26,843 bases of DNA from Candidatus Hodarchaeota archaeon (GCA_016839815.1 JAEOTM010000195.1:1-26843), one strand, 5' to 3'; shown: positions 2,957 through 23,066, counted from the first letter of the stretch. Notes: generated by a model from the letters alone, not told the origin. Numbers and translations are program-made.

Positions 2957-3496
2957 TTAAGTCTTACCTTCAGTCACTGTCACTTTTCCTTGAAAGATGA
3001 GAATTGTCGAAGTAAGAAAAACAATGGCAAACAGATTTACAGGTCCACCCACGAAGAGAAGAAGAAGACTAAATGTTAATGATAATAGACTAGCCCCGAT
3101 CTGTCCGTTTTCTAAATATTCAATAGGTAAATCTCTTTTTCCTTGGAGGGTACGAATTCCTAAAATTACAAAAACAATGGAAAAAGCAAAAGGTGTAATT
3201 ATATCTAATAACGCTGATTGTGAAGGAGAGAGAGAAAAGAAAAGATAATCAATTTCCCTTGAAGGAAGATAGATATCTTCTGGATAAGAAGTGGAAGAAG
3301 AGAGAAATGAATTTAGGTTCTGAAATGTTGGAATGAGGCATACAAGACCAAGCACTAATGATACTAAACCAATTCTTCGCTGAGAAAATAACGGATCTTT
3401 AGTAACGGAATCGTTATCATTAGATATATCGAAATCTTCTTCTAATTCTGCATCAAGATCTATCAGATCAATCTTTTCTCGATCTATATTGTTCAA
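2957..3496 (-). CDS. Hypothetical membrane protein (about 4 TM helices, acidic N-terminus)
   Basis: 179-aa ORF with a TTG start, a D/E-rich first 30 aa and four hydrophobic segments. Confidence 0.7.
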   Translation of the reverse strand: MNNIDREKIDLIDLDAELEEDFDISNDNDSVTKDPLFSQRRIGLVSLVLGLVCLIPTFQNLNSFLSSSTSYPEDIYLPSREIDYLFFSLSPSQSALLDIITPFAFSIVFVILGIRTLQGKRDLPIEYLENGQIGASLLSLTFSLLLLFVGGPVNLFAIVFLTSTILIFQGKVTVTEGKT

Positions 3497-3781
3497 GCAT
3501 TTTTATTTTCTTCTCTAATTTTTAAGGTTTTTGAGGGTTGTTTTCTATAAGGGGATTAGTTTTCACATTTCTGTCCATAACTGGTTTAGACGCAAAAGGC
3601 ACCTTCTACGACTTTGGAAGTAATAACAATCAAGAAAGTAAGATTTAGGCATTTAGGTTAAGAAAAGAAATTATTTCAAGCATTATTCCGTACTTCCCCT
3701 CAGCCATCGCAAAATGTCTATATACATCAAAAATATTTTCAGAAAGTTAATAAGAAAAAATGAGTGCAAATACCCATCATT

Positions 3782-4329
3782 ATGAAAACACAAAACCTGA
3801 AAAAAATTGAAGTGATCATAGCCTCAACTTTAGTGGTAATATTCTTCAATCCAATGGTTTCGGTTGCTTTACCATTACAGTATTTCCTTCAAGATAATTC
3901 ATCCTCTCCAATCAGTTCTGGTACTGCTATTCTGAAGATTCTCATACTTATAGGAAAAACAACCAATTTTCCCCTACGATCACTGCTACCCGAGAGCTGG
4001 CAATAAACTACTATTATACCAATATTACGTTATTAATTGGTCACCAGAAAAAAACTACCGCCATTACAGGTTATATCGAGGATACTAATGGGGATTCCTT
4101 GGCTCAAGAGGTCGTTAAATTATTCGATGCATCAGAGAATGTGATTGCTACCACTCTTAGTGATGAAAACGGCTACTACTACTTCCTTGATGTTGGAATT
4201 GGAACTTTTATTGTAAAAGCGAAAAATAATAGAATAATCCAGTCAATAGAAGTGAAAAAGAAAAAAGAAGAACGAAAAAAAGAGAAAAAGAGAGGAAAGA
4301 GGAGAGGGAGTGACAAGAATAAAAAATGA
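3782..4329 (+). pseudogene. Frameshifted or truncated secreted protein with a carboxypeptidase-regulatory-like / SdrD-B (prealbumin-fold) domain
   Basis: ATG 3782 starts a signal-peptide-like segment (MKTQNLKKIEVIIASTLVVIFFNPMVSVA) that stops at 4006. The -1 frame is open 3898-4329 and encodes AITGYIEDTNGDSLAQEVVKLFD...ATTLSDENGYYYFLDVGIGTFIVKA, a typical I.G...D..G.........T.SD.NG.Y.F pattern. Confidence 0.6.
4255..4329 (-). terminator. Polypyrimidine (T/C) tract, archaeal-type terminator for a minus-strand unit
   Basis: An almost pure A/G run on + (T/C on -), directly downstream of the minus-strand frame ending at 4340. Confidence 0.4.
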
Positions 4330-4339
4330 ATTAAAATAA

Positions 4340-4627
4340 TCAATCTCCTAAAATCCTTCGTCCAAATTTGTCATGTGTATGTTCAAAGGAAGACCTACGT
4401 CTCCTAATGTAACCCATGAACATTTCGATAAGACACTTTGGTATAGCAAAAGAAAGGAATGGAGTTAGTAGATCAATGGATTCAACTCTATAATTCCACC
4501 ATTCTAACTTTTCATATTTTGATTTAGAATATGTTTTGGATTCCTCCCAGTCTTCCCAAACAATTGTAAGGCATGGATTATCATCCAGATCAAAAACTTC
4601 TACCTTTGTTGGAATAAGAAGAAGTAA
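4340..4627 (-). pseudogene. Start-less 95-codon reading frame, probable 3' gene remnant
   Basis: Manual translation gives LLLIPTKVEVFDLDDNPCLTIVWEDWEESKTYSKSKYEKLEWWNYRVESIDLLTPFLSFAIPKCLIEMFMGYIRRRRSSFEHTHDKFGRRILGD*. It is bounded by TGA at 4628-4630 and is absent from the ORF track. Confidence 0.4.
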
Positions 4628-4753
4628 TCAATGAAATAAAAGAGTTTAGTCTTCGTTTATTAAAAAAGATTGACTCTACTCTTGACTCATTTTAAGACTA
4701 GTTACATTTATCTTAACATAATGCTTTTTAATCCGGTTCTGGTTGGTTAAATG

Positions 4754-4770
4754 TTCAAATTTAATTTGAA
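4754..4770. promoter_or_regulatory. Perfect 8-1-8 inverted repeat, candidate operator upstream of SOR
   Basis: TTCAAATT-T-AATTTGAA ends 14 nt before the first ATG (4785). Confidence 0.45.
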
Positions 4771-4793
4771 ATAAACTAGAGGATATGCTATTT

Positions 4794-5180
4794 ATGGACT
4801 TTAATGAATTATTCCAGTCAGCAGATTGGAAAACAGAAAAACATTCGCCAGTTATTAAGATTAAAGAGAAAGAAGACAAAGATTTTGTCTTCATTAAGGT
4901 TTTAGTGGGGAAAGAAATTGCCCATCCTAATCAAACCAACCATCATATTTCATGGATTTCTCTGTTCTTTCTACCCAATGGTGAGAAATTTCCACTACAA
5001 GTAGGTAAAGTTGAATTTACCGCTCATGGTGAATCTGCAGCTGGTCCAGATACATCCACAGTATATACAGAACCCAAGGGATTGTTTGCACTTAAAACTG
5101 AGAAATCAGGAACATTAATTGCGTTCTCTTACTGTAATATTCACGGTCTTTGGCGTTCTGAAGAAAAACTCACCGTTTAA
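4794..5180 (+). CDS. sor: Superoxide reductase (neelaredoxin / 1Fe class II SOR)
   Basis: Iron ligand motifs EKHSP, HPNQTNHHISWI and YCNIHGLW. No N-terminal desulforedoxin domain. AGAGGA at 4778-4783. Start at 4785 or 4794. Confidence 0.93.
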   Translation: MDFNELFQSADWKTEKHSPVIKIKEKEDKDFVFIKVLVGKEIAHPNQTNHHISWISLFFLPNGEKFPLQVGKVEFTAHGESAAGPDTSTVYTEPKGLFALKTEKSGTLIAFSYCNIHGLWRSEEKLTV

Positions 5181-5185
5181 TCTCT

Positions 5186-5213
5186 GTTGGGGTAAAACCC
5201 CTACTTTTTTTTT
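5186..5213 (+). terminator. Hairpin plus T-tract terminator after sor
   Basis: GGGGT-AAA-ACCCC stem (5189-5201) followed by T9 (5205-5213). Confidence 0.6.
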
Positions 5214-5265
5214 AATTTTTGAAAAATTTACTATTCTGATAGCCAACCGAATGAGGAAATTAGAT

Positions 5266-6459
5266 ATGAGATGCATTATCATTGGTAACGGAGTTGCCGG
5301 TGTTACAGTAGCCCGATCTTTAGCCCAACAGCTGGATTCAGAGTCAAAAATCATCCTTTTCTCCACTGAACCATATGGGTATTATTCCCGTCCAAAATTA
5401 CCCCAATTTTTGGGAGATTCTAACCAAACACCAGATGATCTAATGATATACAATGTTAATTGGTATCGAGGAGTGAATATTGATTTTCACCCAAACGAGA
5501 AAATTATAGCCATAAATCGTGAGGAAAAGAAACTTATCTCGGAAAAGGATGAATACTTATATGACAAGGTAGTATTAGCCCAAGGTGCTAGCTGTGCTTG
5601 TCCACCAATTCCAGGACTTGAACTAAAACATGCATACACACTCAGAACCTTATCTGATGCATTAGTAATCCGTAATCAACTGGAGAAAAGTCAATCAGTG
5701 GTAATAATTGGAGGAGGTTTACTAGGAATTGAGAATGCAATTGCGTGTGCAAAACATGGGTTAAAAACAACGATTATAGAATTTTTCCCTCATTTATTGC
5801 CAAGACAGTTGGATCCAGAAGGAAGTAAGATATTCACTCAATTACTGAGTAAATATGGTGTAGAGACCATTACCAATGCTCAAGTTCAGGAAATCCTCGG
5901 TCAGGGAAAGGTTGAGCAAGTTACATTGAAAGATGGACGAAAAATACCAGCTGATATGGTTATGACATGTACAGGCATTAAACCACGCGTTGAGTTAGCT
6001 AAACGAGCTGAACTTGAAGTAAACCGGGGAGTAGTTGTCAATGATTATCTTGAAACATCTGATCCAAACATCTTTGCAGTTGGAGACGTTGCAGAACACA
6101 ATGGTAGAGTTTATGGCATTATTCCTCCGATAACAGAGCAATCACGTATAGTAGTTGAAAATCTAATATCACCACAGACACGAAAATATCATGGATCGAA
6201 AATGTCAACGACTCTCAAAGTTGCAGATCTTTTCCTAACATCCATCGGATATGATGCAAAACAAGAAGGTTTTTCTACCTTGAAATACGTAAATATCGAC
6301 TCTAGTGAATATATAAAGATCTTTCACAAGGATGATAGGATAAAAGCGATTATTTTGTTAGGAACTAAGAAAGGTATTCCTTACTTGAGGAAGTTATTTG
6401 ATGAATCTCTAATCGAGAATCTGGAGAAAATTGAAGAATTATTTCCAGGAATTGTATGA
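5266..6459 (+). CDS. FAD-dependent pyridine nucleotide-disulfide family oxidoreductase, NAD(P)H:rubredoxin reductase / NirB-N-like
   Basis: IIGNGVAG (FAD), YSRPKL, VIIGGGLLGIE (NAD(P)H) and TSDPNIFAVGDVAE. The true start is probably ATG 5266 (GAGGA at 5253-5257). The ORF-track extension to 5119 runs through the sor terminator. Confidence 0.88.
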   Translation: MRCIIIGNGVAGVTVARSLAQQLDSESKIILFSTEPYGYYSRPKLPQFLGDSNQTPDDLMIYNVNWYRGVNIDFHPNEKIIAINREEKKLISEKDEYLYDKVVLAQGASCACPPIPGLELKHAYTLRTLSDALVIRNQLEKSQSVVIIGGGLLGIENAIACAKHGLKTTIIEFFPHLLPRQLDPEGSKIFTQLLSKYGVETITNAQVQEILGQGKVEQVTLKDGRKIPADMVMTCTGIKPRVELAKRAELEVNRGVVVNDYLETSDPNIFAVGDVAEHNGRVYGIIPPITEQSRIVVENLISPQTRKYHGSKMSTTLKVADLFLTSIGYDAKQEGFSTLKYVNIDSSEYIKIFHKDDRIKAIILLGTKKGIPYLRKLFDESLIENLEKIEELFPGIV

Positions 6460-6963: not shown

Positions 6964-9900
6964 TCAATAATATTTGCCTCGGGATCTGTTAAACCACTTA
7001 GCTGCTTCAATTACAATTACAGGGATTGTCGCTGCAACTAAGCATATCAACCAATCACTGATAGAAAGACCAAGGATATCTACATACACTCCAATTCCTG
7101 CAATTATCTCTTGAAATATGGGGATGTACATTAGTCCTAAATGAATAGGGAGAATGGAGAACGCAAGTGCATAAGTAATCCAAGAGGAATCTTTTCGAAT
7201 CGCATCAAGTAAGGATTGATCTATCCTTCGTATAGATAAGATCATCAAAGGGATAGCAAGATACAAGATTGTATGCATCATTGTCCTCGCTTTAGCATGT
7301 TCCCAGCTAAGAGGACGCAGATTAATATCGGCTACACTCGGATCATCATGGAAAATTGGTAAATAGAAATCCCGATTCGTCACATTCACTGGAATCCACC
7401 CGAAATAAGTTGTGAAGTAAACTAGATATATAACGCTTGCAAGGCTTATTACAACTGCTAGGAGGGTCAGAGCAAGTTTCCGATTAAATATTCCCGCTGA
7501 ATCAATAGGGTCACGATTCATAATCCCTCGGGGCACCTGATCTAAGATCAACGCTAAAGGGGGGAACGTATGGGCAATTCCAAAAATATATGCTCGTTGG
7601 AGGTGATCCATTAATTCAAATCCAGGGATGAATCCTGAAATGAAGCTTGCCCCAATATAACAGGCAGCCTCACTTAAATTGATCGCTATATAAAAGAATA
7701 TAATCACTCGTATTCGTTGAAATAGTGCACGCCCCTCTCGTATCCCTGTCACAATTGAATTAAAAGAATCATCCGCAATTACTAGATCTGCTGCTTGTTT
7801 AGATACCTCTGTTCCTGCAATACCCATTGCAATCCCTGCATCAGCCATACTTAACGCTAAAGCATCATTAACCCCATCACCTGTCATAGCAACTACCCGA
7901 TTCTGATTTTGATAGCGTTGAATAATTGTTTGCTTATCCTGAGGGGCCACACGAGCAAAAACTCGAGTTTCTTTAAAATCAGGATCATTCAGAAGCGTAG
8001 CCATTCGTCCTTCATGTGCCTGATGATCTTTTGGACTCATCAAACCGATACTCCCTGCAATAGATGAAGCAGTAATTGGTGAATCTCCAGTAATCATAAT
8101 GGGTGTGATTCCAGCAGCTAGTGTTTCTTGAACAGATTCATCTACCATCTCACGTGGAGGATCTAACACTTTTACAAACCCGAGATAACACAAATCAGAT
8201 TCTATCAGGTCTCTTTCATCATCATTTTTGGGAGGGAGCTTTTCTGGATATCTATATGTAAAGGATAATACCCGATATCCTTCTCCTGCAACTGTCTCAA
8301 CTTCGGATAGGATTTCTTTCTTATCAGCCTCTGTTATGGTTCTTTGTTCATCTCCGTATCCAATAAGAGTACATCGTGGAAGAACCACTTCAGTAGCTCC
8401 CTTACAGAAGACAATTGGCTTATCGTCTAGTTCAAACACTTTACTCATTCGCTTTAACGAGGAATCAAACGGAAATTCTCTTATTAGATTATATTGCTTT
8501 GAGATCCTCTTTTCTGAGATCTTACTTTTATTAAAAAGAGTCATAAGAGCGGATTCTGTCGGGGAACCAGTACCAGTGTATACCACCTGATCTCCAATAG
8601 TTTCTTCAGTAATCTTGGAGTCGTTGTTTAACATACCAGAAACAATTAACAATCCTAATGAGGAGTCAAGATTAACATCAATTGGTTTCAAATTTAATGC
8701 TTCTTTCTCACTAACCTGAATATGGGTTGTACCTTCAATCCTAGATATATATCCCTTAGGAGAATAACCTAATCCACTTACATAGTAATGTTGATCCGAA
8801 GAAGCATCCCATATTCCTTTTACTGTCATTTGACCAGCAGTAATCGTACCTGTTTTATCAGAACAGAGAATAGAGATTCGACCCAAGCTCTCGATCGATG
8901 CAAGATTACGGATAATGACTTTATGCTTAGCCATGGCCAATACTCCCGTAATAAGTATAATAGTTGTAAGTAACGGAATATTTATTGGAACAACAGACAT
9001 AGCTTTAATGATAATATTTGACATATCAAAGATAATTCTACCAAATAGAGCAATTAGATCATTTTCAGGGATTACTCCCTTCTCTAGATCAGAAAAAATC
9101 ACAGTTCCTTGATAAATAAGTAAAAGACTGAATACAATAAGCATTCCCCCTGCAAGGTAATTTCCGATTACGTTGACTTTCTGACGGATAGGAATGTCCC
9201 CTGTGTTTAATTCAGCCAATTCTAAGCTAATTTTACCAAATTCAGTGCGGCCACCTGTATTCACCACAAGGAGTCTCCCTGAACCCATTGTCACAAAAGT
9301 TCCATTATACACCATATTCTTCCTCTCACCTATAGTTGTATCTTTTTCAAAAACTTTAGTTCCATCCTCAATTTTTGTTGCAGGAACACTTTCTCCTGTC
9401 AATGAGGACTCATTAACACGGAATGAGCTAGAATTTATTATTCGAGCATCTGCAGGAACTTTGTCTCCTTGAGCTAAGATAATCACGTCACCAGGAACAA
9501 CGGTTTCAGTGGTGATTTCGATTTCCTTTCCGTCACGAATTACTCTCGCAGTTGGAGCGGACATTTTCTGTAATGCTTCTATTTGTTTTTGTGCCCGTTG
9601 TTGCTGAATGATTGCGATCAGGAAATTTACACCTACGATGATTAGCCACTGAATGGCCGTAATCCAGATTGAAGTATCGGAAGGATCAATAAAAATGAAA
9701 TAAATCAAAGCAAGGATTAAAATGAAAGTTGTCATTAATAGATAAATTACGATCAATGTATTCATCAAAGGAGCCAAATACACTTTCCAGAAGCTCTGCT
9801 TTGGTTGAGGGATTTGATTTTGACCGTACCTCTCTAAACGACTGCTTGCTTCGCTTGAACTTAACCCTTTCTTGACATCAGTCTTTAAATCGTTTATTAG

Positions 9901-9966
9901 TGAATTTAGTTCATGAAAATGACCGATTATTTCCGGTATATCTTCTTGGACGTTATGTATTTCCAT
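6964..9966 (-). CDS. P-type ATPase with a P2A-like scaffold and a non-canonical transport site (M4 PINIP)
   Basis: YGQNQI, VPAD, NESSLTGES, CSDKTGT (D370), FDSSLKRMS, KGATE, DPPR, MITGD, ARVAPQDK and TGDGVNDALAL, with about 10 TM segments. AAGGAGG at 9980-9974. Confidence 0.95.
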   Translation of the reverse strand: MEIHNVQEDIPEIIGHFHELNSLINDLKTDVKKGLSSSEASSRLERYGQNQIPQPKQSFWKVYLAPLMNTLIVIYLLMTTFILILALIYFIFIDPSDTSIWITAIQWLIIVGVNFLIAIIQQQRAQKQIEALQKMSAPTARVIRDGKEIEITTETVVPGDVIILAQGDKVPADARIINSSSFRVNESSLTGESVPATKIEDGTKVFEKDTTIGERKNMVYNGTFVTMGSGRLLVVNTGGRTEFGKISLELAELNTGDIPIRQKVNVIGNYLAGGMLIVFSLLLIYQGTVIFSDLEKGVIPENDLIALFGRIIFDMSNIIIKAMSVVPINIPLLTTIILITGVLAMAKHKVIIRNLASIESLGRISILCSDKTGTITAGQMTVKGIWDASSDQHYYVSGLGYSPKGYISRIEGTTHIQVSEKEALNLKPIDVNLDSSLGLLIVSGMLNNDSKITEETIGDQVVYTGTGSPTESALMTLFNKSKISEKRISKQYNLIREFPFDSSLKRMSKVFELDDKPIVFCKGATEVVLPRCTLIGYGDEQRTITEADKKEILSEVETVAGEGYRVLSFTYRYPEKLPPKNDDERDLIESDLCYLGFVKVLDPPREMVDESVQETLAAGITPIMITGDSPITASSIAGSIGLMSPKDHQAHEGRMATLLNDPDFKETRVFARVAPQDKQTIIQRYQNQNRVVAMTGDGVNDALALSMADAGIAMGIAGTEVSKQAADLVIADDSFNSIVTGIREGRALFQRIRVIIFFYIAINLSEAACYIGASFISGFIPGFELMDHLQRAYIFGIAHTFPPLALILDQVPRGIMNRDPIDSAGIFNRKLALTLLAVVISLASVIYLVYFTTYFGWIPVNVTNRDFYLPIFHDDPSVADINLRPLSWEHAKARTMMHTILYLAIPLMILSIRRIDQSLLDAIRKDSSWITYALAFSILPIHLGLMYIPIFQEIIAGIGVYVDILGLSISDWLICLVAATIPVIVIEAAKWFNRSRGKYY

Positions 9967-10058
9967 ATTATAGCCTCCTTTATGAGGTATGCAAAGATTA
10001 TGGGACAGATAGACATTTCAAATAAAAGTAATCAATAAATTAGATGCATTTACAAGAA

Positions 10059-10098: not shown

Positions 10099-10806
10099 CT
10101 AAATGAGTATAATTAACGGACTTAAGGAGAGAAGGAAGATTGCAGCGTGGTATGTACTTATGACTTTGAGCTCACGATAAGCGAGATCATGATGAAACTC
10201 ACGAATGGCAATTATTGAATCTGAGATAACAAATAATAAAGCACCAAGTACCACAAAACCAAATTCCATTATTCCAGAGGTAGTCCACAGTAGCACTGCT
10301 GATGATAGCATACCTGAGATAAATATACAATAAATGATTACAGGGGTTCTGAATTTCCCTAATCCCTTATCAGAGGATTCTAAATAGCGTAGAAAGAGGA
10401 CTAGATAAATTATTAATCCAATAATAACGATTCCAGTCAATAATAAGGAATCTGAAGATATTCCAAGTTCAATAGCCTGACCCATTAACGAAATCATCAG
10501 GATTATTTGTGCAACTAAAAATAGAGGAAGTCCTGGGATTAGTCCTTTCTCCATACCAGCATCTCCTAACATGCAAAAAAATAACCCTATTGTCAAAATC
10601 AATGATAAATAGATCGACTCATGCCCAGTGTAGAGAACAAACAATGTAGCCATTCCAGCTGGAACCAGTTTAATATAAGTACTGAATGGAGCTAATTTTC
10701 TTAAGAACTCAACCTTAAGGTCAATCTCATCTGACTTAGTACTTTTGACAAGTATATAGAGAACTGAAAAAAACCAGAAACAAACTGTGTAGATTATTTC
10801 GATCAT
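10099..10806 (-). CDS. YhhN / TMEM86 family (lysoplasmalogenase-like) membrane protein
   Basis: About 8 TM segments, with family motifs K.VP, GLFFCMLGD, GL..FL.A, PVIIY, GALLFVISDSIIA and STY. The likely start is ATG 10806 (MIEIIY) rather than 10911. Confidence 0.85.
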   Translation of the reverse strand: MIEIIYTVCFWFFSVLYILVKSTKSDEIDLKVEFLRKLAPFSTYIKLVPAGMATLFVLYTGHESIYLSLILTIGLFFCMLGDAGMEKGLIPGLPLFLVAQIILMISLMGQAIELGISSDSLLLTGIVIIGLIIYLVLFLRYLESSDKGLGKFRTPVIIYCIFISGMLSSAVLLWTTSGIMEFGFVVLGALLFVISDSIIAIREFHHDLAYRELKVISTYHAAIFLLSLSPLIILI

Positions 10807-10927
10807 TTTTACCACTTTTTCCAAAGAGAACCTAGGAAAAATTGTCTGTATATTCTCCTTAAAAGCATTTGGCTTGAAAGAGAAAATCAAAGGGGGGAAA
10901 TTCTGAATCAATCGAAGAAATCATTAA

Positions 10928-13303
10928 TTATAATTGAATTTTTCCGTTTTTAAATAAACTATCAATTTTCTTATCTTCGAATGTTTGGGGTTTTCGCTTT
11001 TTTGTTTGCCTAGCTGGAGATCCACGTTTTTCATAAGTTTTCTTAACTTTTTCTTTCGCTCTCTCTAATTCTTTTTTCAATGAAAGAGAGATTCGTTTTT
11101 TAACTAGGTCTATATCTTTTACACGAGGTTTAACGATGTCTCCAACTTTTAGTCCTGCTTCACGAGGGTGTCGAATGAAACTATCCGAAATTTCACTGAT
11201 GTGAATAAGTCCATTCGTCTTTACTCCTAAATCTACAAAACAACCAAAATCAGTCACGTTAGTAACAGTTCCCTCAACCATACTACCTACCTCTAAATCT
11301 TCTATAGTTAAAACAGAGGATTTGAGAAGAGGTTTATCAAAATCGTCTCTGGGGTCACGATAAGGATTCTGTAGGATTTCAATTATATCAGTAATAGTTA
11401 CTAATCGATCTTCATGATGTAGTTGTTTGGCTGCAAAAGATGGATTGAGCATTTTTAATTGTCGTTGCAACCGAGTTCTACGTTCTTTTGTTGTTAGATC
11501 ATCTTTTGTAAATTTAGCTAATTTAATTATACTTTCTGCCAACTCGTATGACTCAGGATGAATGGGAGAGTTATCAAAAGGATCAGGAGCATCAGGAATT
11601 CGCAAAAAGCCAACGCTCTGCTCAAAAGTACGAGGACCAATTCCAGGAACACTTTTTAAATCTTCACGATAAACAAAAGCTCCATTCTCGGTCCTATATT
11701 TGATAATGTTTTTTGCGACCGAGCTAGTGATACCACTTACATATTTCAGCAATACTTCAGAGGCTGTATTAACATCAGCACCTACTAGATTGACTGTATC
11801 AACTACTACATCTTTTAATGCCTTAGATAACCCAGCAAGGTCGTGTTGGTACTGTCCTACTCCAATAGAACGTGGATCAATTTTAACAAGTTCTGCTAAT
11901 GGGTCTAGTAAGCGTCTTGCAATGGAAATTGCACCTCTTATAGTAACATCCAAATCAGGGAATTCATTTCTGGCTAGATCACTTGCACTATATACAGAGG
12001 CTCCAGCCTCATTTACAATAACATACCTTAACTCAGTTCCCTTGGCAATATATTTACTAACAAATTCTTCAGTTTCACGCGAAGCCGTGCCATTCCCAAT
12101 AGCAATGATTGAAATATTGTGTTTACTAATGATGTCCTTAAGGACGTTAGCGGATTTTTCAAACTGCTCATGAGGTTTTGTTGGATAAACAGTGCCGCTA
12201 GCTAAAACATTACCCATCTCATCAATCGCAGCATATTTACATCCAGTTCTAAAAGCAGGATCGATACCTAAAATTCGTGATCTAATTGGAGGACTAAGAA
12301 GTAAGTGTTTTAGATTTTCTCCAAAGACTTGGATTGAATGCTGCTGTGCTTTTTCAAATTGTATTCGTTTTAATTCCCTTTGCATACTCGGACCTAGGAG
12401 TCGCTTCCACGAATCACTTATAGCAAGATCTAACTGCTCGCTCACTTCAGGATTACTACTTTGAGAAGAAGAAACGATATCAGTAATATCTCCAATTATT
12501 GATTCATCTGGAAATACAACTTTAAACGAAAGAACACCTTCTCTGTCTCCACGTAACATCGCAAGTAACCGATGAGGAGGAACACTTAACGCAGATTCTT
12601 CAAACTCAAAATACTGTTCGAATTTCTTCCCCTGGATAATTTTTTGAGAATTTTCTTCTTCCTCTTCTTCATCCATTTCGAAGAGAAGCGATTTTTTGGT
12701 GGTGAAGAAGGCTTTACTATAGAATTTCTTCCTAATAGTCTCACGAATATTCTTCGAATTTGAGAGATCTTCTGCAATGATGTGTCGAGCCCCTTCCAAG
12801 GCTTCTTCAGGTGAATTCACACCAACTTCAGAATTGAGATACTCATTGGCAAGCTCTACTAATGATTTATCCTCGGGAAATTCAGATTTGCCAAAAATAA
12901 TGTCAGCTAAAGGCTCCAATCCTTTTTCTCTAGCAATGAACCCCTTAGTTTTCTTTTTACGCTTGTAAGGTCTATAAATCTCGTTTAATTCTGCTAAACT
13001 TGTAGCATTAGCAATGCTTTTAGCTAATTCTTCAGTCATTTGTCCCTGCGCAACGATTACTTCATGAATTCGTTTTCTTTCACGACGTAAGTTAGTCAAC
13101 TCTTGATAATTCTCTTCAATTGCACGTATTTGAGTTTCATCTAAAGATTGGGTTTTTTCTTTTCGGTAGCGCGCTATGAACGGAATTGTATTACCATCGT
13201 TTAATAACTGAAGAGTTGAGGAGACCTGTTCTTGTGATAAATGTAGTGTACTAGCAATCATTTGCATGATTTCAGTGCTAGAATCGTCCGTTAGGGTTGA
13301 CAT
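10928..13303 (-). CDS. tex: Tex/YhgF transcription accessory protein (YqgF-like, HhH and S1 domains)
   Basis: GNTIPFIARYRKEKT, ILGIDPAFRTGCK, IAIGNGTASRETE, VNEAGASVYSAS, SIGVGQYQHD, and a C-terminal S1 (GTVTNVTDFGCFVDLG...GLIHIS). Confidence 0.96.
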   Translation of the reverse strand: MSTLTDDSSTEIMQMIASTLHLSQEQVSSTLQLLNDGNTIPFIARYRKEKTQSLDETQIRAIEENYQELTNLRRERKRIHEVIVAQGQMTEELAKSIANATSLAELNEIYRPYKRKKKTKGFIAREKGLEPLADIIFGKSEFPEDKSLVELANEYLNSEVGVNSPEEALEGARHIIAEDLSNSKNIRETIRKKFYSKAFFTTKKSLLFEMDEEEEEENSQKIIQGKKFEQYFEFEESALSVPPHRLLAMLRGDREGVLSFKVVFPDESIIGDITDIVSSSQSSNPEVSEQLDLAISDSWKRLLGPSMQRELKRIQFEKAQQHSIQVFGENLKHLLLSPPIRSRILGIDPAFRTGCKYAAIDEMGNVLASGTVYPTKPHEQFEKSANVLKDIISKHNISIIAIGNGTASRETEEFVSKYIAKGTELRYVIVNEAGASVYSASDLARNEFPDLDVTIRGAISIARRLLDPLAELVKIDPRSIGVGQYQHDLAGLSKALKDVVVDTVNLVGADVNTASEVLLKYVSGITSSVAKNIIKYRTENGAFVYREDLKSVPGIGPRTFEQSVGFLRIPDAPDPFDNSPIHPESYELAESIIKLAKFTKDDLTTKERRTRLQRQLKMLNPSFAAKQLHHEDRLVTITDIIEILQNPYRDPRDDFDKPLLKSSVLTIEDLEVGSMVEGTVTNVTDFGCFVDLGVKTNGLIHISEISDSFIRHPREAGLKVGDIVKPRVKDIDLVKKRISLSLKKELERAKEKVKKTYEKRGSPARQTKKRKPQTFEDKKIDSLFKNGKIQL

Positions 13304-13423: not shown

Positions 13424-14029
13424 ATGATTTCTGGAATAATTCTTGCCGCAGGGGAATCAAAACGCTTCACTACACAAAATAAACTCCTTTATGAACTTAC
13501 TCCTGGAATAAGTCTAATAGAATCTATCATTCATGCTTTTTTGCAATCTCAAGTACATGAGTTAATCATCGTTACAGGTTTTGATTCTACCAGAATAGAA
13601 GAGGTAATTCGAAAAGCTTCAATCGATTTCAAAAATCGTGTTAGAATAACATTTAATGAAAAATATAAAACTGGAGGAATGTCTTCCTCTGTAATTACAG
13701 GACTAAAGGAGGTAGATAAAGCTGATGCTGTTCTAATTACTCCAGCGGATATTCCGCTTATACCTCCAGAGACTATCGACTTAATGATTTCATATTTCTT
13801 GAAAAAACAACCAGAAATTATAATTCCGACTTTTAAAAATCGAAAAGGTCATCCTATCATGTTTAAATCTACGTTATTTACTCAAATCTTGATGATTTCC
13901 GAAAAACAGCGAGGACTTAAAGAAATAACAAACAAATACCAAAAAGAAATTGTATTTCTTCCCGTACAAAACTCTGGTATACTTAAGGACCTAGATACGA
14001 TAGATGATCTGAAAAAATTTTCTCCGTAG
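13424..14029 (+). CDS. mocA: Molybdenum cofactor cytidylyltransferase (MocA-like NTP transferase)
   Basis: IILAAGESKRF, GMSSS, PADIP, GHP and DLDTIDD. It lies next to XDH-family genes, which typically use MCD. Confidence 0.85.
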   Translation: MISGIILAAGESKRFTTQNKLLYELTPGISLIESIIHAFLQSQVHELIIVTGFDSTRIEEVIRKASIDFKNRVRITFNEKYKTGGMSSSVITGLKEVDKADAVLITPADIPLIPPETIDLMISYFLKKQPEIIIPTFKNRKGHPIMFKSTLFTQILMISEKQRGLKEITNKYQKEIVFLPVQNSGILKDLDTIDDLKKFSP

Positions 14030-14040
14030 TTTCTTATTGG

Positions 14041-14055
14041 GAAAAACTCTTTATA
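14041..14055 (+). promoter_or_regulatory. Archaeal BRE-TATA-like promoter for the moaD-xdh operon
   Basis: GAAAAACTC-TTTATA ends 28 nt upstream of ATG 14084, consistent with a leaderless transcript. Confidence 0.45.
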
Positions 14056-14083
14056 TTTTTTATTTATCTTCTCTGTTTAGTTC

Positions 14084-14341
14084 ATGGTAAGATCGAATAT
14101 GAATTCTGCTACATTAGAGCTAGTTGGATCAGTCCGAAATCCTTTTCCTAGCAAGAAACGTAAAAAAACAATTGAATTTTCGAAAAAAACATCTATCAAG
14201 ACAATCTTACTTAAAGTAGGGTTTCTCGAAACAGAGCTAGAATTCCTTATTCCAATCGTGAACGGAACACGAACCTCACATGACTATCTACTACAAGATA
14301 ACGATCACATCTGGATTTCTCTCCCTATTGGCGGAGGTTAA
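14084..14341 (+). CDS. MoaD/ThiS/SAMP ubiquitin-like sulfur carrier
   Basis: 85 aa with IVNG...LQDNDHI..SLPIGGG* and a C-terminal di-glycine. Confidence 0.85.
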   Translation: MVRSNMNSATLELVGSVRNPFPSKKRKKTIEFSKKTSIKTILLKVGFLETELEFLIPIVNGTRTSHDYLLQDNDHIWISLPIGGG

Positions 14342-14347
14342 ACAAAT

Positions 14348-15184
14348 ATGAAAAACGTAACAGAATTTATGTACCCTTCAAACGTCTCAGAGGCTTTATC
14401 GCTTTATACAGAACAAGAAAATTGTGCTTATATCGCTGGTGGAACCCACATATCGGCAGAAAATAGGAATAATACTATTAGACTTGTAGATATTACACGA
14501 ATAGGTTTAAATGAAATTATAGATGGGGATGAGAGAATTCAAGTAGGTGCTACAGCAACAATAACAGATATGTATTGTTCACCAGTCGTGAAAAAAGTAG
14601 GAAATGGTGTGCTGAAGAAAGCATGTCAATTAATAGCCGACACACCACTAAGAAATGCCATTACCCTAGGAGGGAATATCGCTCGTTTGTATACTTGGGC
14701 AGGATTACCCGTAGTGTTGCTTACATTAGATGCCGAAGTTGAAATTATGAATCCACAGGGAGAGACCACAATGGTACCAGCTACTGATCACTTTACCAAT
14801 GGTGGTGTAAAAGGTGGAGATCTAATCCTCAAGGTCCATTTTCCACAAAAAAAATCTTGGATTCACTTCTATGAAAAATTTTGCCTTACAACAGTAGATT
14901 ACTCATGGTTAACCATGGCCTTTGCTGCAGAAGTTAAAGATGGAAAAATCAGTGATGCTAGACTTGCAGTCTCCCGTATTACTAAAGTTAAACGAGTGAC
15001 AGAAGTGGAAAACGCAATCATAGGGCAAAAAGTGGCTAATCTTGAATTTAACAATCTTATATCAGTTTTAAAATCATCTGTTAATATTGTAAAGGATTAT
15101 CGTGTAAGTAAAGAATATCGCAAACAACTTTTGGGAGTTTTATTCAAACGAATGCTCCAACAACTACAGGAGGAATCAAAATGA
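14348..15184 (+). CDS. Molybdenum hydroxylase FAD-binding subunit (XdhB/CoxM-like)
   Basis: YIAGGT, IQVGATAT, LRNAITLGGNIA and DYRVSKEYRK. ATGA overlap with the next gene. Confidence 0.88.
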   Translation: MKNVTEFMYPSNVSEALSLYTEQENCAYIAGGTHISAENRNNTIRLVDITRIGLNEIIDGDERIQVGATATITDMYCSPVVKKVGNGVLKKACQLIADTPLRNAITLGGNIARLYTWAGLPVVLLTLDAEVEIMNPQGETTMVPATDHFTNGGVKGGDLILKVHFPQKKSWIHFYEKFCLTTVDYSWLTMAFAAEVKDGKISDARLAVSRITKVKRVTEVENAIIGQKVANLEFNNLISVLKSSVNIVKDYRVSKEYRKQLLGVLFKRMLQQLQEESK

Positions 15185-15654
15185 GCCAGATTTTGCATGT
15201 AACCATTAATGGACTGCAGAAAAAACTTTCAATTGAACCTGATGAACTTTTGCTTGACGTACTTAGACGTGATGGATATAAAGGAGTAAAAAGGGGATGC
15301 AAAGAGGGAGCTTGTGGAACTTGTACAATTCTGCTTAATGGAAAAGCTGTAAAATCCTGCATAATGTTAGCTGCCCAAGCTGAAGGTGGAGAAATTATTA
15401 CCATTGAGGGAATAGGAACAAGGGAAAAACCCCATCCGATTCAACAAGCATTTGTGGATGAAGGAGTAGTCCAGTGTGGGTATTGTATTCCAGGAATGAT
15501 ACTAGCTGCTAAAAATTTACTTGATAACAATCCTAATCCTACCGAGGGCGAAATCAAATTTGCATTAGATGGAAATTTATGCCGTTGTACAGGGTACAGT
15601 GGTCAAATTAAGGCAGTATTAGCTGCTGCCGAAGCTATACGAGGTGAAAAATAA
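15181..15654 (+). CDS. Molybdenum hydroxylase 2x[2Fe-2S] subunit (CoxS-like)
   Basis: GCKEGACGTCT..SC, QCGYCIPG and NLCRCTGY. Confidence 0.95.
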   Translation: MSQILHVTINGLQKKLSIEPDELLLDVLRRDGYKGVKRGCKEGACGTCTILLNGKAVKSCIMLAAQAEGGEIITIEGIGTREKPHPIQQAFVDEGVVQCGYCIPGMILAAKNLLDNNPNPTEGEIKFALDGNLCRCTGYSGQIKAVLAAAEAIRGEK

Positions 15655-17987
15655 TGACGAAATTTTACGAAGGACGAGTAGTTACAAAAAGTGTTCCAAA
15701 AAAAGATGCACTTAGTTTAGCAATGGGGAAACCCATGTATACAGATGATATTGACTATAAAGACCTCGTTCATGTGAAAATGCTACGTAGCCCACATGCA
15801 CACGCAATAATCGAGAAAATTGATACAAGTAAGGCTGAAAAGTTACCTGGTGTAGTGGGAATATTAACCTACAAAAATTCCTCACAAGTTCTTCATACAA
15901 GTGCAGGTCAGGGTTTTCCTGAACCTTCTCCCTATGATACACGACTATTTAACAAGAAAGTTAAATTTGTTGGGGAAAGAGTTGCAGCTGTTGCTGCAGA
16001 AACAATTAAAATTGCAGAAGCAGCTTTAGACTTAATTAAAGTGGAATATACTGTTCTTGAACCAGTTTTTGACCATGATAAGGCTTTGGGGAATAAAGTC
16101 GTTATCCATGACGAGGATGATTCTAAGTACATTATTCCAGTATTTTTTGATCCCAAGAAGAACCACGCTTCCCATGTGGATGCAGAAACAGGTGATTTAG
16201 AAAAAGGATTTGCAGAAGCAGACCATATTGTGGAAAAAACTGTTAGAAACCATTATGGACAACATTGTCCATTAGAACCGCATATCAGCATTGCCTATAT
16301 TGATAACTACGATCGTTTAGTCGTTCGAACAGCCACCCAAGTTCCTTTTCACTGCCGAAGAATCTTAGCTCAAATCTTGGAGATCCCACTCTCACAAATT
16401 AGAGTTATTAAACCTAGAATCGGTGGAGGATTTGGTACAAAGCAGGAGATTATCACAGAACCTATCGTTGCATCTTTTGCCTGGAAATTGAAGCGTCCTG
16501 TTAAGTTTGAGTTTACTAGAAAAGAGGAATTTATCTCAGCCCGTACACGTCATCCTATGACAACTTGGTTTAAAGCGGGAGTGAAGAAAGATGGTACCAT
16601 AACTGCCATGGATATGAGAGTAACGAGCAACACTGGTGCTTATGGCTCACATGCATTAACCGTGTTGAGTAATACAGGAAGTAAAACATTGCCTCTCTAT
16701 CACTGTCAAAATATCAGATTTATTGGAGATACCGTATATACTAATCTTCCTGTCGCTGGAGCTTATAGGGGGTACGGTGGTACACAAGCCTCACTAGCTA
16801 TGGAAATTGTTATGGATGATTTGGCTGGAGAGATTGGTATGGATCCAGCTAAGTTTCGATTAATGAATCATATAAAAGCAGGTGAAACCTCTCCTATATT
16901 TAAAGCACTAGGTGAGGGTACAGAAGGTGTTGAGCAAACAGTAGATTCAGTAGGTTTAACAGAATGCATTAATCAAGGTGCAGATGCTATCAATTGGTGG
17001 AATCGGGAAGAAATCAAAAAACAAAATAGTACAGATACAGTTAAGCGGGGTTTTGGTCTTGTGTGTGTGATGCAAGGATCTTCGATACCAGATATTGATA
17101 TGGCTGCAGGATATTGTAAGATGAATGAGGACGGAACCTTCAATCTGCTAGTAGGTGCAACAGATATTGGAACAGGGTCTGATACCATTCTTGCTCAAAT
17201 CTTTGCAGAGGGATTGGGTATTGAGGAATCGGATGTAATCGTCCTTAGTTCCGATACAGATACTACACCCTTCGATACTGGTGCCTATGCTTCGTCTACT
17301 ACCTATTTGACGGGTCAGGCATGTATAAATTTAACAATGAAAGTTAAAGAGCAACTATTTACCTATACTGCCACTGTGCTAAATGTACCCAAGGATGAAT
17401 TGAAAATTGAAGACAAAGCAGTTGTCCACAAGAAGTCAGGAAAACAAATGACATTTGCAGAGATTGGAACGAAGTCGTATTACTCTGAAAATCAAACACA
17501 GATAGGTGCTGTGGCCTCAGAGTTATCAAAAAAATCTCCTCCTCCATTCATTGCGCATTATGCCGAAGTAGATGTGGATATCGAAACAGGTCGGGTAAGT
17601 GTACTAAAATACGTAGCGGCAGTTGATTGTGGGACACCAATCAATCCAAAATTAGTAGTAGGCCAAGTCGAAGGAGCATTAGTAAATGGATTATGTTATG
17701 CTTTATCAGAACGGTATATTTTCAATGATAAAGGGAAAATGATGAACCCTTCATTCGGTAATTACAAAATCATGACAACCATTGATCTACCTGAAATAGA
17801 AACGATTATAGTTCCTACCTACGAACCAAGTGGTCCTTGGGGAGCAAAATCAGTAGCTGAAGTAAATATTTCAGGCCCAATGCCAGTGTTGAGCAATGCT
17901 ATATTTGATGCTATAGGAATACGGATGACAGAACCTCCATATACTCCCGATCGGGTACTTAAGGCCATTCAGGATCATAACAAGTGA
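15654..17987 (+). CDS. Molybdenum hydroxylase molybdopterin-binding subunit (xanthine/aldehyde oxidoreductase family, XdhD-like)
   Basis: LRSPHAHA, QHCPLEPH, IGGGFGTK, AYRGYGGTQ, DIGTGSDT, AYASSTT, GQVEG and GAKSVAE (catalytic Glu). It lacks the CO-dehydrogenase AYxCSFR loop. TAATG overlap with the previous gene. Confidence 0.93.
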   Translation: MTKFYEGRVVTKSVPKKDALSLAMGKPMYTDDIDYKDLVHVKMLRSPHAHAIIEKIDTSKAEKLPGVVGILTYKNSSQVLHTSAGQGFPEPSPYDTRLFNKKVKFVGERVAAVAAETIKIAEAALDLIKVEYTVLEPVFDHDKALGNKVVIHDEDDSKYIIPVFFDPKKNHASHVDAETGDLEKGFAEADHIVEKTVRNHYGQHCPLEPHISIAYIDNYDRLVVRTATQVPFHCRRILAQILEIPLSQIRVIKPRIGGGFGTKQEIITEPIVASFAWKLKRPVKFEFTRKEEFISARTRHPMTTWFKAGVKKDGTITAMDMRVTSNTGAYGSHALTVLSNTGSKTLPLYHCQNIRFIGDTVYTNLPVAGAYRGYGGTQASLAMEIVMDDLAGEIGMDPAKFRLMNHIKAGETSPIFKALGEGTEGVEQTVDSVGLTECINQGADAINWWNREEIKKQNSTDTVKRGFGLVCVMQGSSIPDIDMAAGYCKMNEDGTFNLLVGATDIGTGSDTILAQIFAEGLGIEESDVIVLSSDTDTTPFDTGAYASSTTYLTGQACINLTMKVKEQLFTYTATVLNVPKDELKIEDKAVVHKKSGKQMTFAEIGTKSYYSENQTQIGAVASELSKKSPPPFIAHYAEVDVDIETGRVSVLKYVAAVDCGTPINPKLVVGQVEGALVNGLCYALSERYIFNDKGKMMNPSFGNYKIMTTIDLPEIETIIVPTYEPSGPWGAKSVAEVNISGPMPVLSNAIFDAIGIRMTEPPYTPDRVLKAIQDHNK

Positions 17988-21797: not shown

Positions 21798-23066
21798 ATG
21801 AAAATCGGTATCATCGGTGCTGGAATAGGAGGATGTTCTGCTGCTTACTATCTCCGCCAAAAACTTCCAGACTCAGAAATTTATATCTATGATAAGCTAG
21901 GTAGAATTGGTGGAAGATTATATCATCGTCAAATTGCTAATATTACCAATGAATTAGGGGCGACATTCTTTCATACAGTAAATAAACACCTTATGAAGTT
22001 TGTTGAAGACTTTGATATTCCTATAGATGAATATGTCTATCCGAGATTTGGTATATGGGATAGCAAAAGTATTATCTTTACATCAAGTAGAAATTCTCTC
22101 ATTACGAATCTAAAATTATTTCTACGCTATCGAATGACTGCGTTACGATTAAATGGATTGATCAAAGCAGCGAAGAAGCGTGTACTGGCACTATATCAGC
22201 AAGATCCAACTGTATATTCGAATTTAAGGGATCTCTTTACTACAGGTAACATTAACGAATGGATAGGCATTCCATTTGATGAGTATTTACGTTCGATGGG
22301 AATTTCTCAGAAATTCATTGATGAAATCATTGAACCGAGTACAAGGATGATTTACACTCAAAATGCAGGTATAGGAAGTTTTGCCGGATTAGCCACATTG
22401 ATTTCATCGGATGGGACTCCACTCTACAAAATGAAAAAGGGGAATGCTTCCTTAGCACAGCATTTAACGGAGGTTTCCAAGAGTAAAGTGAAATTAAATA
22501 CTGTAATCGATACTGTTGAAAAAAATAATGGTAGACTTCTTATTAAAGGGAAGGATCTAACTGAAGAATTTGATGCTATTATTCTTGCCGCTCCACTGGA
22601 ACAAGCAAACCTAATAATAAACTTGGATATTCCTAAAATCGAAATGAGAAAGTTTCAAACTACCCACTTCAAACTCATTATCGGCAAGGTAAATCCTGGT
22701 TATTTTGGTAAGAAGACCCTTGAAGAAATTCCGGAACTCTTGATGACCAAGAATGTTGAAACTCTTCCATTTAAGGTTCTAGAAAATTTAGGAAGATTAG
22801 ATGATGGAAATTTCTTATACAACCTTGTTTCAACAAATCCTATAACCGAAGAGTTGATTGATCAAATGTTTCAAGAAACTAAACTGATAGAAGATCATTC
22901 ATGGCAGTTTTCGTATCCTGTCTCCAGAGCTATCAAAGAGTATCAGCCAATCAAACTCCATTCAAATTTTTACTACATTAATGCAATTGAATCTACCGCA
23001 TCGACAATGGAAGCTTCCATATTGGGTGCAAAAACGGTTACAGATCTACTGGTAGCTGAGAATTAG
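21798..23066 (+). CDS. Prenylcysteine oxidase/lyase-like FAD oxidoreductase (PCYOX1 family)
   Basis: [63 protein letters not shown].SYP and LH.[18 protein letters not shown] follow the motif order of PCYOX1 as recalled from memory (no search run). Confidence 0.8.
   Translation: [422 protein letters not shown]

Follow-up and report, generated by a model that had tools for sequence, protein, structure and literature searches.

Which substrate would be moved by a P-type ATPase that keeps its catalytic machinery but carries isoleucine and histidine where the calcium pumps carry the M4 glutamate and the M6 aspartate? This question is raised by a gene in a 26,843-nucleotide stretch of DNA from a Candidatus Hodarchaeota archaeon (GCA_016839815.1 JAEOTM010000195.1:1-26843; hereafter the window), which a first-pass annotation took for a flippase-like pump with a dismantled cation site, and possibly for an intermediate between the P2 cation pumps and the eukaryotic P4 lipid flippases.

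An intact P-type ATPase with a rebuilt cation site

The product of 6964-9966 is an intact P-type ATPase of a Hodarchaeales Asgard archaeon, encoded by a single open frame of 1000 aa with zero internal stops. It has what defines the P-type superfamily, namely the DKTGT, TGES, KGATE, DPPR, TGD and GDGVND motifs and the A/N/P/M architecture, and it scores 252 bits against the superfamily model TIGR01494 (cut-off 62). Canonical PEGL pumps are present in the same genome, together with two pumps of the P1B type. The features of the gene are as follows.

6964..9966, minus strand: P-type ATPase gene, 1000 aa, 10 membrane helices with A, N and P domains (AlphaFold model, pLDDT 86.4)
9974..9980, minus strand: AAGGAGG, Shine-Dalgarno-like, 7 nt 5′ of the ATG
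9388..9399, minus strand: A-domain phosphatase motif TGES, of the P2/P3 type and not P4 DGET
9004..9006, minus strand: K321 in M4, at the SERCA L302 position; a subclade feature (40/223 members)
8974..8988, minus strand: M4 motif PINIP (P327-P331); I328 = SERCA E309, N329 = G310
8845..8859, minus strand: phosphorylation motif DKTGT (D370)
7864..7881, minus strand: P-domain hinge motif GDGVND
7669..7680, minus strand: M5 N763 and E766, equivalent to SERCA N768 and E771
7570..7584, minus strand: M6 F795 (SERCA N796) and H799 (SERCA D800)
7252..7275, minus strand: M8 H898 and I905 (I905 at the SERCA E908 position)

The first-pass annotation had read these elements correctly: the catalytic motifs TGES, KGATE, DPPR, TGD and GDGVND are all present, PINIP lies where it was placed with P327 preceding D370 by 43 residues, and K321, N763, E766, F795 and H799 were all located as claimed. 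The register that puts I328 at the E309 position was checked on real SERCA2 and LMCA1 sequences, and the same alignment pairs N763 with N768, E766 with E771, F795 with N796, H799 with D800 and likewise I905 with E908. It also disposes of the P4-like FDQ end that had been seen in M6, as D809 follows the P2 register and precedes the position of the P4 Asp by one residue.

Conservation, spread and selection of the family

PI(N/S/T/A)I(P/T) and the M6 His are found together in each of the 120 best homologues (42-100% identity), and the close ones are named Hodarchaeales or Heimdallarchaeota; PEGLP, which in close homologues would have pointed to a private change or an assembly error, does not occur among them. 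Against three relatives, dN/dS is 0.03-0.07, and the pump is under strong purifying selection. Because the same motifs recur in 120/120 top homologues and dN/dS is this low, neither chance nor faulty assembly accounts for them, and the pooled conservation likewise rules out a private mutation.

Conservation was counted over 231 pooled members, with denominators of 217-224 depending on the position. E766 is invariant (223/223), H799 is His in 219/221 members, N763 is kept in 213/223 and N329 in 201/224, and position 328 is Ile in 209/224 members and Glu in 0/224. With E766, H799 and N763 near-invariant and the M8 Glu present in 80% of the family, the reading of a dismantled cation site is not supported. 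The claim of an M8 without acidic residue holds for this protein and for its subclade of 42 sequences at least 63% identical to it (itself included), to which the loss of the M8 Glu is confined and all of which carry H898, seven residues before the lost Glu; it fails as a family trait, since the Glu is present in 173/217 members. Similarly, of the three features that had been singled out for a conservation check, the M4 motif and H799 stand, whereas K321 occurs in 18% of members (40/223), elsewhere being Thr, Arg, Ser or Leu, which rules it out as a family-wide counter-ion. The PISIP variant of the M4 motif occurs in 16 members. The deepest-branching members carry PFNFP, PWNFP, PVNFP or PWSFP, and these Phe, Trp and Val residues suggest that Ile at position 328 arose inside the family. 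In two members (P0129 and P0185) Gln has taken the place of the M6 His as well as of the M8 Glu, and P0129 is surrounded by genes for NiFe-hydrogenase and aldehyde:ferredoxin oxidoreductase.

When 1.8 billion representatives were searched with a profile, about 45 clusters of the family came first, followed by ordinary PEGL pumps; the membrane-domain profile had matches in 154/201 Asgard genomes, including 71/88 high-quality ones. Named loci belong to Hodarchaeales, Heimdall-, Hermod-, Odin-, Hel-, Atabey- and Asgardarchaeum lineages, with the addition of one Dehalogenimonas chromosome. The latter copy was the sole match among 201 genomes of that class and was therefore probably transferred; at its locus (L048 1815-5862) the pump gene is divergent from an adjoining presenilin/signal-peptide-peptidase gene. 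One family of Asgard genomes usually has two pump copies, often in tandem, and its tandem or near-tandem paralogue pairs (L371-L379) vary in M4 motif (PINIP, PINLP, PFNLP, PLNIP). In the bin of the window itself (G000), contig C81:1-5111 carries the pump and the genes downstream of it once more, with 77% nucleotide identity to window 9821-4705 and saturated synonymous sites; this is probably a co-binned relative, the genome contamination being 7.8%.

The family branches among the P2 pumps

Judged by sequence comparison, the family resembles a P2/P3-type ion pump, yet falls outside P2A, P3A, P4 and P5 alike. The NCBIfam models score 337-420 bits for P2, 305-309 for P3, 251 for P5 and 81 for P4, each below its own cut-off; specifically, the P2A models reach 397-415 bits (cut-offs 703-798), the P3A model 305 (615), the P5 model 251 (618) and the P4 model TIGR01652 81 (431), and the M4 motif is PINIP rather than the PP(E/A)LP of P5. 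The closest folds of the full model are LMCA1, SERCA, SPCA and PfATP4. The M5-M10 profile can be aligned with SERCA over its whole length, with only P2 pumps among the best 60 matches listed, while a single-sequence M5-M10 search of the PDB gave no useful match. Fold comparison of the M5-M10 model (pLDDT 91.7) gave Z scores of 19.5 for SPCA1, 19.0 for PfATP4, 17.5 for SERCA and 17.0 for LMCA1, and lower values of 13.8-16.2 for P4, 11.6-14.6 for P5 and 13.9 for TMEM94.

The scaffold and the HMM and structure matches are thus those of Ca2+-ATPases, and this is what speaks for the automatic label, under which the protein would still be a Ca2+ pump. However, E309, N796 and D800 are all replaced, and none of the curated P2 cut-offs is reached. 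All Ca2+ pumps have site II (bioRxiv 2020.06.23.166462), and Ca2+ transport is unlikely because this is the very site lost here. We therefore consider the label hardly credible, in agreement with the first-pass annotation, which had also foreseen that an undescribed prokaryotic subfamily would be hidden under it.

In a tree of 57 sequences and 682 columns (site columns removed, LG+C20 PMSF; P5, TMEM94 and eukaryotic P2B/C/D left out), the family and its basal members group together with full support (100/100); this clade lies within the P2 radiation and separate from P3 and P1B, although the tree does not settle the sister group. By these sequence criteria the family branches among the P2 pumps, and it apparently represents a large branch of the calcium-pump family that has yet to be described. 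The P4 stem in this tree is very long (3.5), and P4 attaches elsewhere than the family; forcing the two together was not rejected (p-AU 0.386). When P4 was moved over 99 branches of a fixed backbone (LG+F+G4), 36/99 placements survived, including the one with P4 and the entire family as sisters (p 0.335), whereas a position as sister to the Ile core was borderline (p 0.048). P4 as sister to the Hodarchaeales subclade was rejected (p 3e-5), so an origin of P4 from that subclade is rejected as well.

Likeness to the P4 flippases

The Ile at the E309 position had been taken as a hallmark of P4 flippases, but P3 pumps also carry Ile or Val there according to a review of P4 (PMC4937031), and Asgard P3A pumps have PVALP or PIALP in M4. 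What the protein has in common with P4 is this Ile, a small polar residue next to it, the loss of the M4 and M6 acids, and the common P-type fold seen in the M5-M10 comparison. It differs from ATP8A1/2, Drs2 and Neo1 in having TGES in place of DGET in the A domain, and in missing the P4 M4 Asn (M323), M5 Lys (I762) and M6 Asn/Thr (F795) as well as the M4 Glu at +7 after PISL, while retaining the second M4 Pro; from the P4 M5 Lys-Asn it keeps only the Asn, which all P2 pumps share. Furthermore, the family's invariant M5 Glu and its M6 His set it apart from P4, the buried Glu766 being without a P4 counterpart.

Measured against a P4 reference set of 29 sequences from metagenome contigs (P4 and P5 seeds were also sought in viral contigs, with none found), the family matches 1/70 P4-specific columns, where control families match 1-10, and 72/112 P2-specific columns. 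Membrane-only profiles gave 98-203 bits for prokaryotic P2, a score inflated by the choice of that profile set for similarity to the family, and values below zero for P4. No P4 chain was among the best 50 Foldseek or VIA matches listed for the full model, lower-ranked P4 matches being possible. The P4 C-terminal domain PF16212 (PhoLip_ATPase_C) and CDC50 (PF03381) each exceeded the cut-off in 0/201 Asgard genomes searched. The CDC50 subunit is used by P4A and P4C, and since P4B flippases work without it, its absence is not decisive against P4.

A convergent lipid or lysolipid flippase, in which the M4 carbonyls, N329, N763 and H799 would hold the head group and I328 would form a hydrophobic gate, could draw on the resemblance of PI(N/S)(I/L), and of the PISIP members in particular, to P4 PISL, on the further acid lost in the subclade of this protein, and on the independence of P4B from CDC50. 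With P4-specific columns not above control families, the P4 residues missing, a buried Glu766 throughout, and Phe, Trp or Val rather than Ile in the deepest members, we regard such a flippase as improbable. Even less probable, in our estimate, is that the Hodarchaeales form is an archaeal lipid flippase, the whole family is the archaeal sister of the eukaryotic P4 flippases, or both. An intermediate between P2 and P4 has no positive support, though the whole family as P4 sister is not rejected (p 0.34-0.39), and the pump does not yet account for how the P4 flippases arose.

Gene neighbourhood

A further hint at lipids comes from the gene directly upstream of the pump.

10099..10911, minus strand: YhhN (lysoplasmalogenase-family) membrane protein

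This gene, of a lipid-hydrolase family, lies directly upstream on the same strand in 8/17 genus genomes, and 3 others have it within 6 kb. This arrangement would suit a flippase; outside the genus, however, YhhN is not adjacent to the pump. Since YhhN belongs to a block of conserved gene order that also contains a molybdoenzyme cluster and a 7TM kinase, its adjacency hints only weakly at lipids, and only among close relatives. A Tex-like gene lies 16 bp before the YhhN gene, which in turn ends 132 bp before the pump (window 10099-13303, minus strand), and the three genes possibly share a transcript. The cluster itself (window 13424-17987, plus strand) is of the xanthine-dehydrogenase type, stays near the pump in genus relatives, and encodes a MocA-like nucleotidyltransferase, a small ubiquitin-fold protein (14084-14341) and the FAD, 2Fe-2S and Mo subunits.

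Across 47 loci, no partner gene was conserved between lineages and no substrate clue came from conserved neighbours. A DtxR-type regulator, ZnuABC and Ni-SOD lie near some copies, as lineage-specific neighbours.

Elsewhere in the window, a superoxide reductase (desulfoferrodoxin domain) is followed by an NADH:rubredoxin-reductase-like flavoprotein (4785-6459, plus strand), together an oxygen-detoxification pair. A prenylcysteine lyase family protein (PF07156, E 2e-51; 21798-23066, plus strand) is flanked by three ABC exporter half-transporter genes; this family is known mainly from eukaryotes. A 179-aa ORF at 2957-3496 (minus strand) has no Pfam match, and about 1.3 kb at 3500-4780 are without a long ORF.

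A proposed single-site pump for a small monovalent cation

Based on residue conservation and on analogy with known pumps, we propose that the family may pump H+ or a different small monovalent cation by way of a single site with an M5 Glu and M6 His pair, a reading to which we give even chances. The protein would act as a stand-alone P2-derived pump with the ordinary E1-E1P-E2P-E2 cycle, its activity being deduced from the motifs. Where SERCA has the side chains of site II, the bulky hydrophobic I328 and F795 take their place, and because these positions are so occupied, Ca2+ would not be bound in the usual way. One small site would be left, formed by the unwound M4 backbone, N329, N763, E766 and H799, through which one small monovalent cation could be moved per ATP, presumably outwards if the export direction of the P2 and P3 pumps applies. 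His799 stands at the position of the proton-carrying Asp of P3A pumps, and Glu766 would serve as its partner of opposite charge in a contact predicted from SERCA homology, so that the two might form a charge-reversed version of the P3A M5 Arg and M6 Asp pair. Alternatively, His799 may serve as a built-in counter-ion, as has been proposed for the M6 His of P1B-4 pumps (PMC8880997). The transported ion could perhaps be a proton, which is tentative, or with still less confidence Na+, K+ or NH4+.

In the Hodarchaeales subclade the M8 Glu is gone and one membrane carboxylate is left; therefore a monovalent substrate is favoured over a divalent one. Over the family as a whole, by contrast, the N768, E771 and E908 positions are kept in 80-100% of members, with His for D800, and Asn, Glu, His and the M8 Glu might together form a rebuilt site I that holds Mn2+, Fe2+, Zn2+, Co2+, Ni2+ or Mg2+. 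His together with carboxylates is a typical soft-metal set. A precedent also exists in ERMA/TMEM94, reported to hold Mg2+ via M4 carbonyls and an M5 amide (PMC13322241), and the metal-related genes near some copies would fit. However, these neighbours are lineage-specific, the protein has no metal-binding domain or Cys motif, and the 42-member subclade with its one carboxylate is nevertheless under strong selection; a divalent-metal pump is thus rather unlikely in our view.

The hydrophobic site II and the Glu/His/Asn pocket could also suit an amine, and non-metal substrates have arisen twice in the P-type superfamily. No neighbouring genes match a small organic or neutral solute (amine, polyamine, ammonia, small acid), and for a P5A-like helix mover the P5 model scores well below those of P2 and the P5 folds rank below P2, so that we rate either as improbable. 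The monovalent-cation pump with its Glu-His pair remains the reading that we prefer, and such a pair was not found described for any P-type pump in the literature searched.

Comparison with known P-type systems

No paper describing the family was found in the literature searched, subscription papers lying outside its scope, and a survey of Asgard transporters lists only putative Ca2+, Mg2+ and Cu pumps. Since 1998 the P-type families have gained only P6, and prokaryotes are expected to yield further ones (PMC10654040). The present family is old, occurs in about three quarters of Asgard genomes, is often duplicated and is mis-annotated as a Ca2+ pump, and it corrects the counts of Asgard Ca2+ pumps. 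Identification of its substrate would show how a P2 scaffold comes to accept a new cargo and which substrates the archaeal kin of eukaryotes transport at the expense of ATP.

The P3A proton pumps (AHA2, Pma1 and the archaeal PVALP pumps) resemble the family in the hydrophobic residue at the E309 position, the second M4 Pro, and a titratable M6 residue with an M5 counter-charge. In P3A pumps the M6 Asp is controlled by the M5 Arg, whereas the Glu and His of the family carry the charges in reverse. P3A forms a separate clade, and neither placement nor columns show a special kinship; because the number of conserved derived columns common to both is 0, the likeness to a proton pump is an analogy only. 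Genuine P3A homologues over the curated cut-off, whose presence counts against a proton role for the family, occur in 22/121 Asgard genomes (L184-L203), among them a divergent group with altered M5 and M6 (L200-L203). The P1B-4 pump sCoaT likewise has a conserved M6 His, but differs in architecture and M4 motif (SPC), and this too is an analogy only. The ER Mg2+ transporter ERMA/TMEM94 is another P-type fold without PEGL; it has lost TGES and GDGVND, both of which are retained here, and in the structure comparison no special affinity backs a link through its PILP motif, its M5-M10 Z score being among the lowest P-type matches.

The best sequence and structure matches are the P2A pumps (Listeria LMCA1, SERCA1/2 and SPCA1), with LMCA1 at 360 bits, Z 33.7 and rmsd 5.0 over 850 aligned residues. 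The likeness extends to TGES, the 10 helices and the retained N768 and E771, while the Glu of PEGL (E309), N796 and D800 have become Ile, Phe and His. Of the site I residues, N768 and E771 are kept in the family, and E908 in most members though Ile in this protein. The single-site Ca2+ pumps keep site II and drop site I, whereas the Asgard family does the opposite, and its cation site is the mirror image of theirs.
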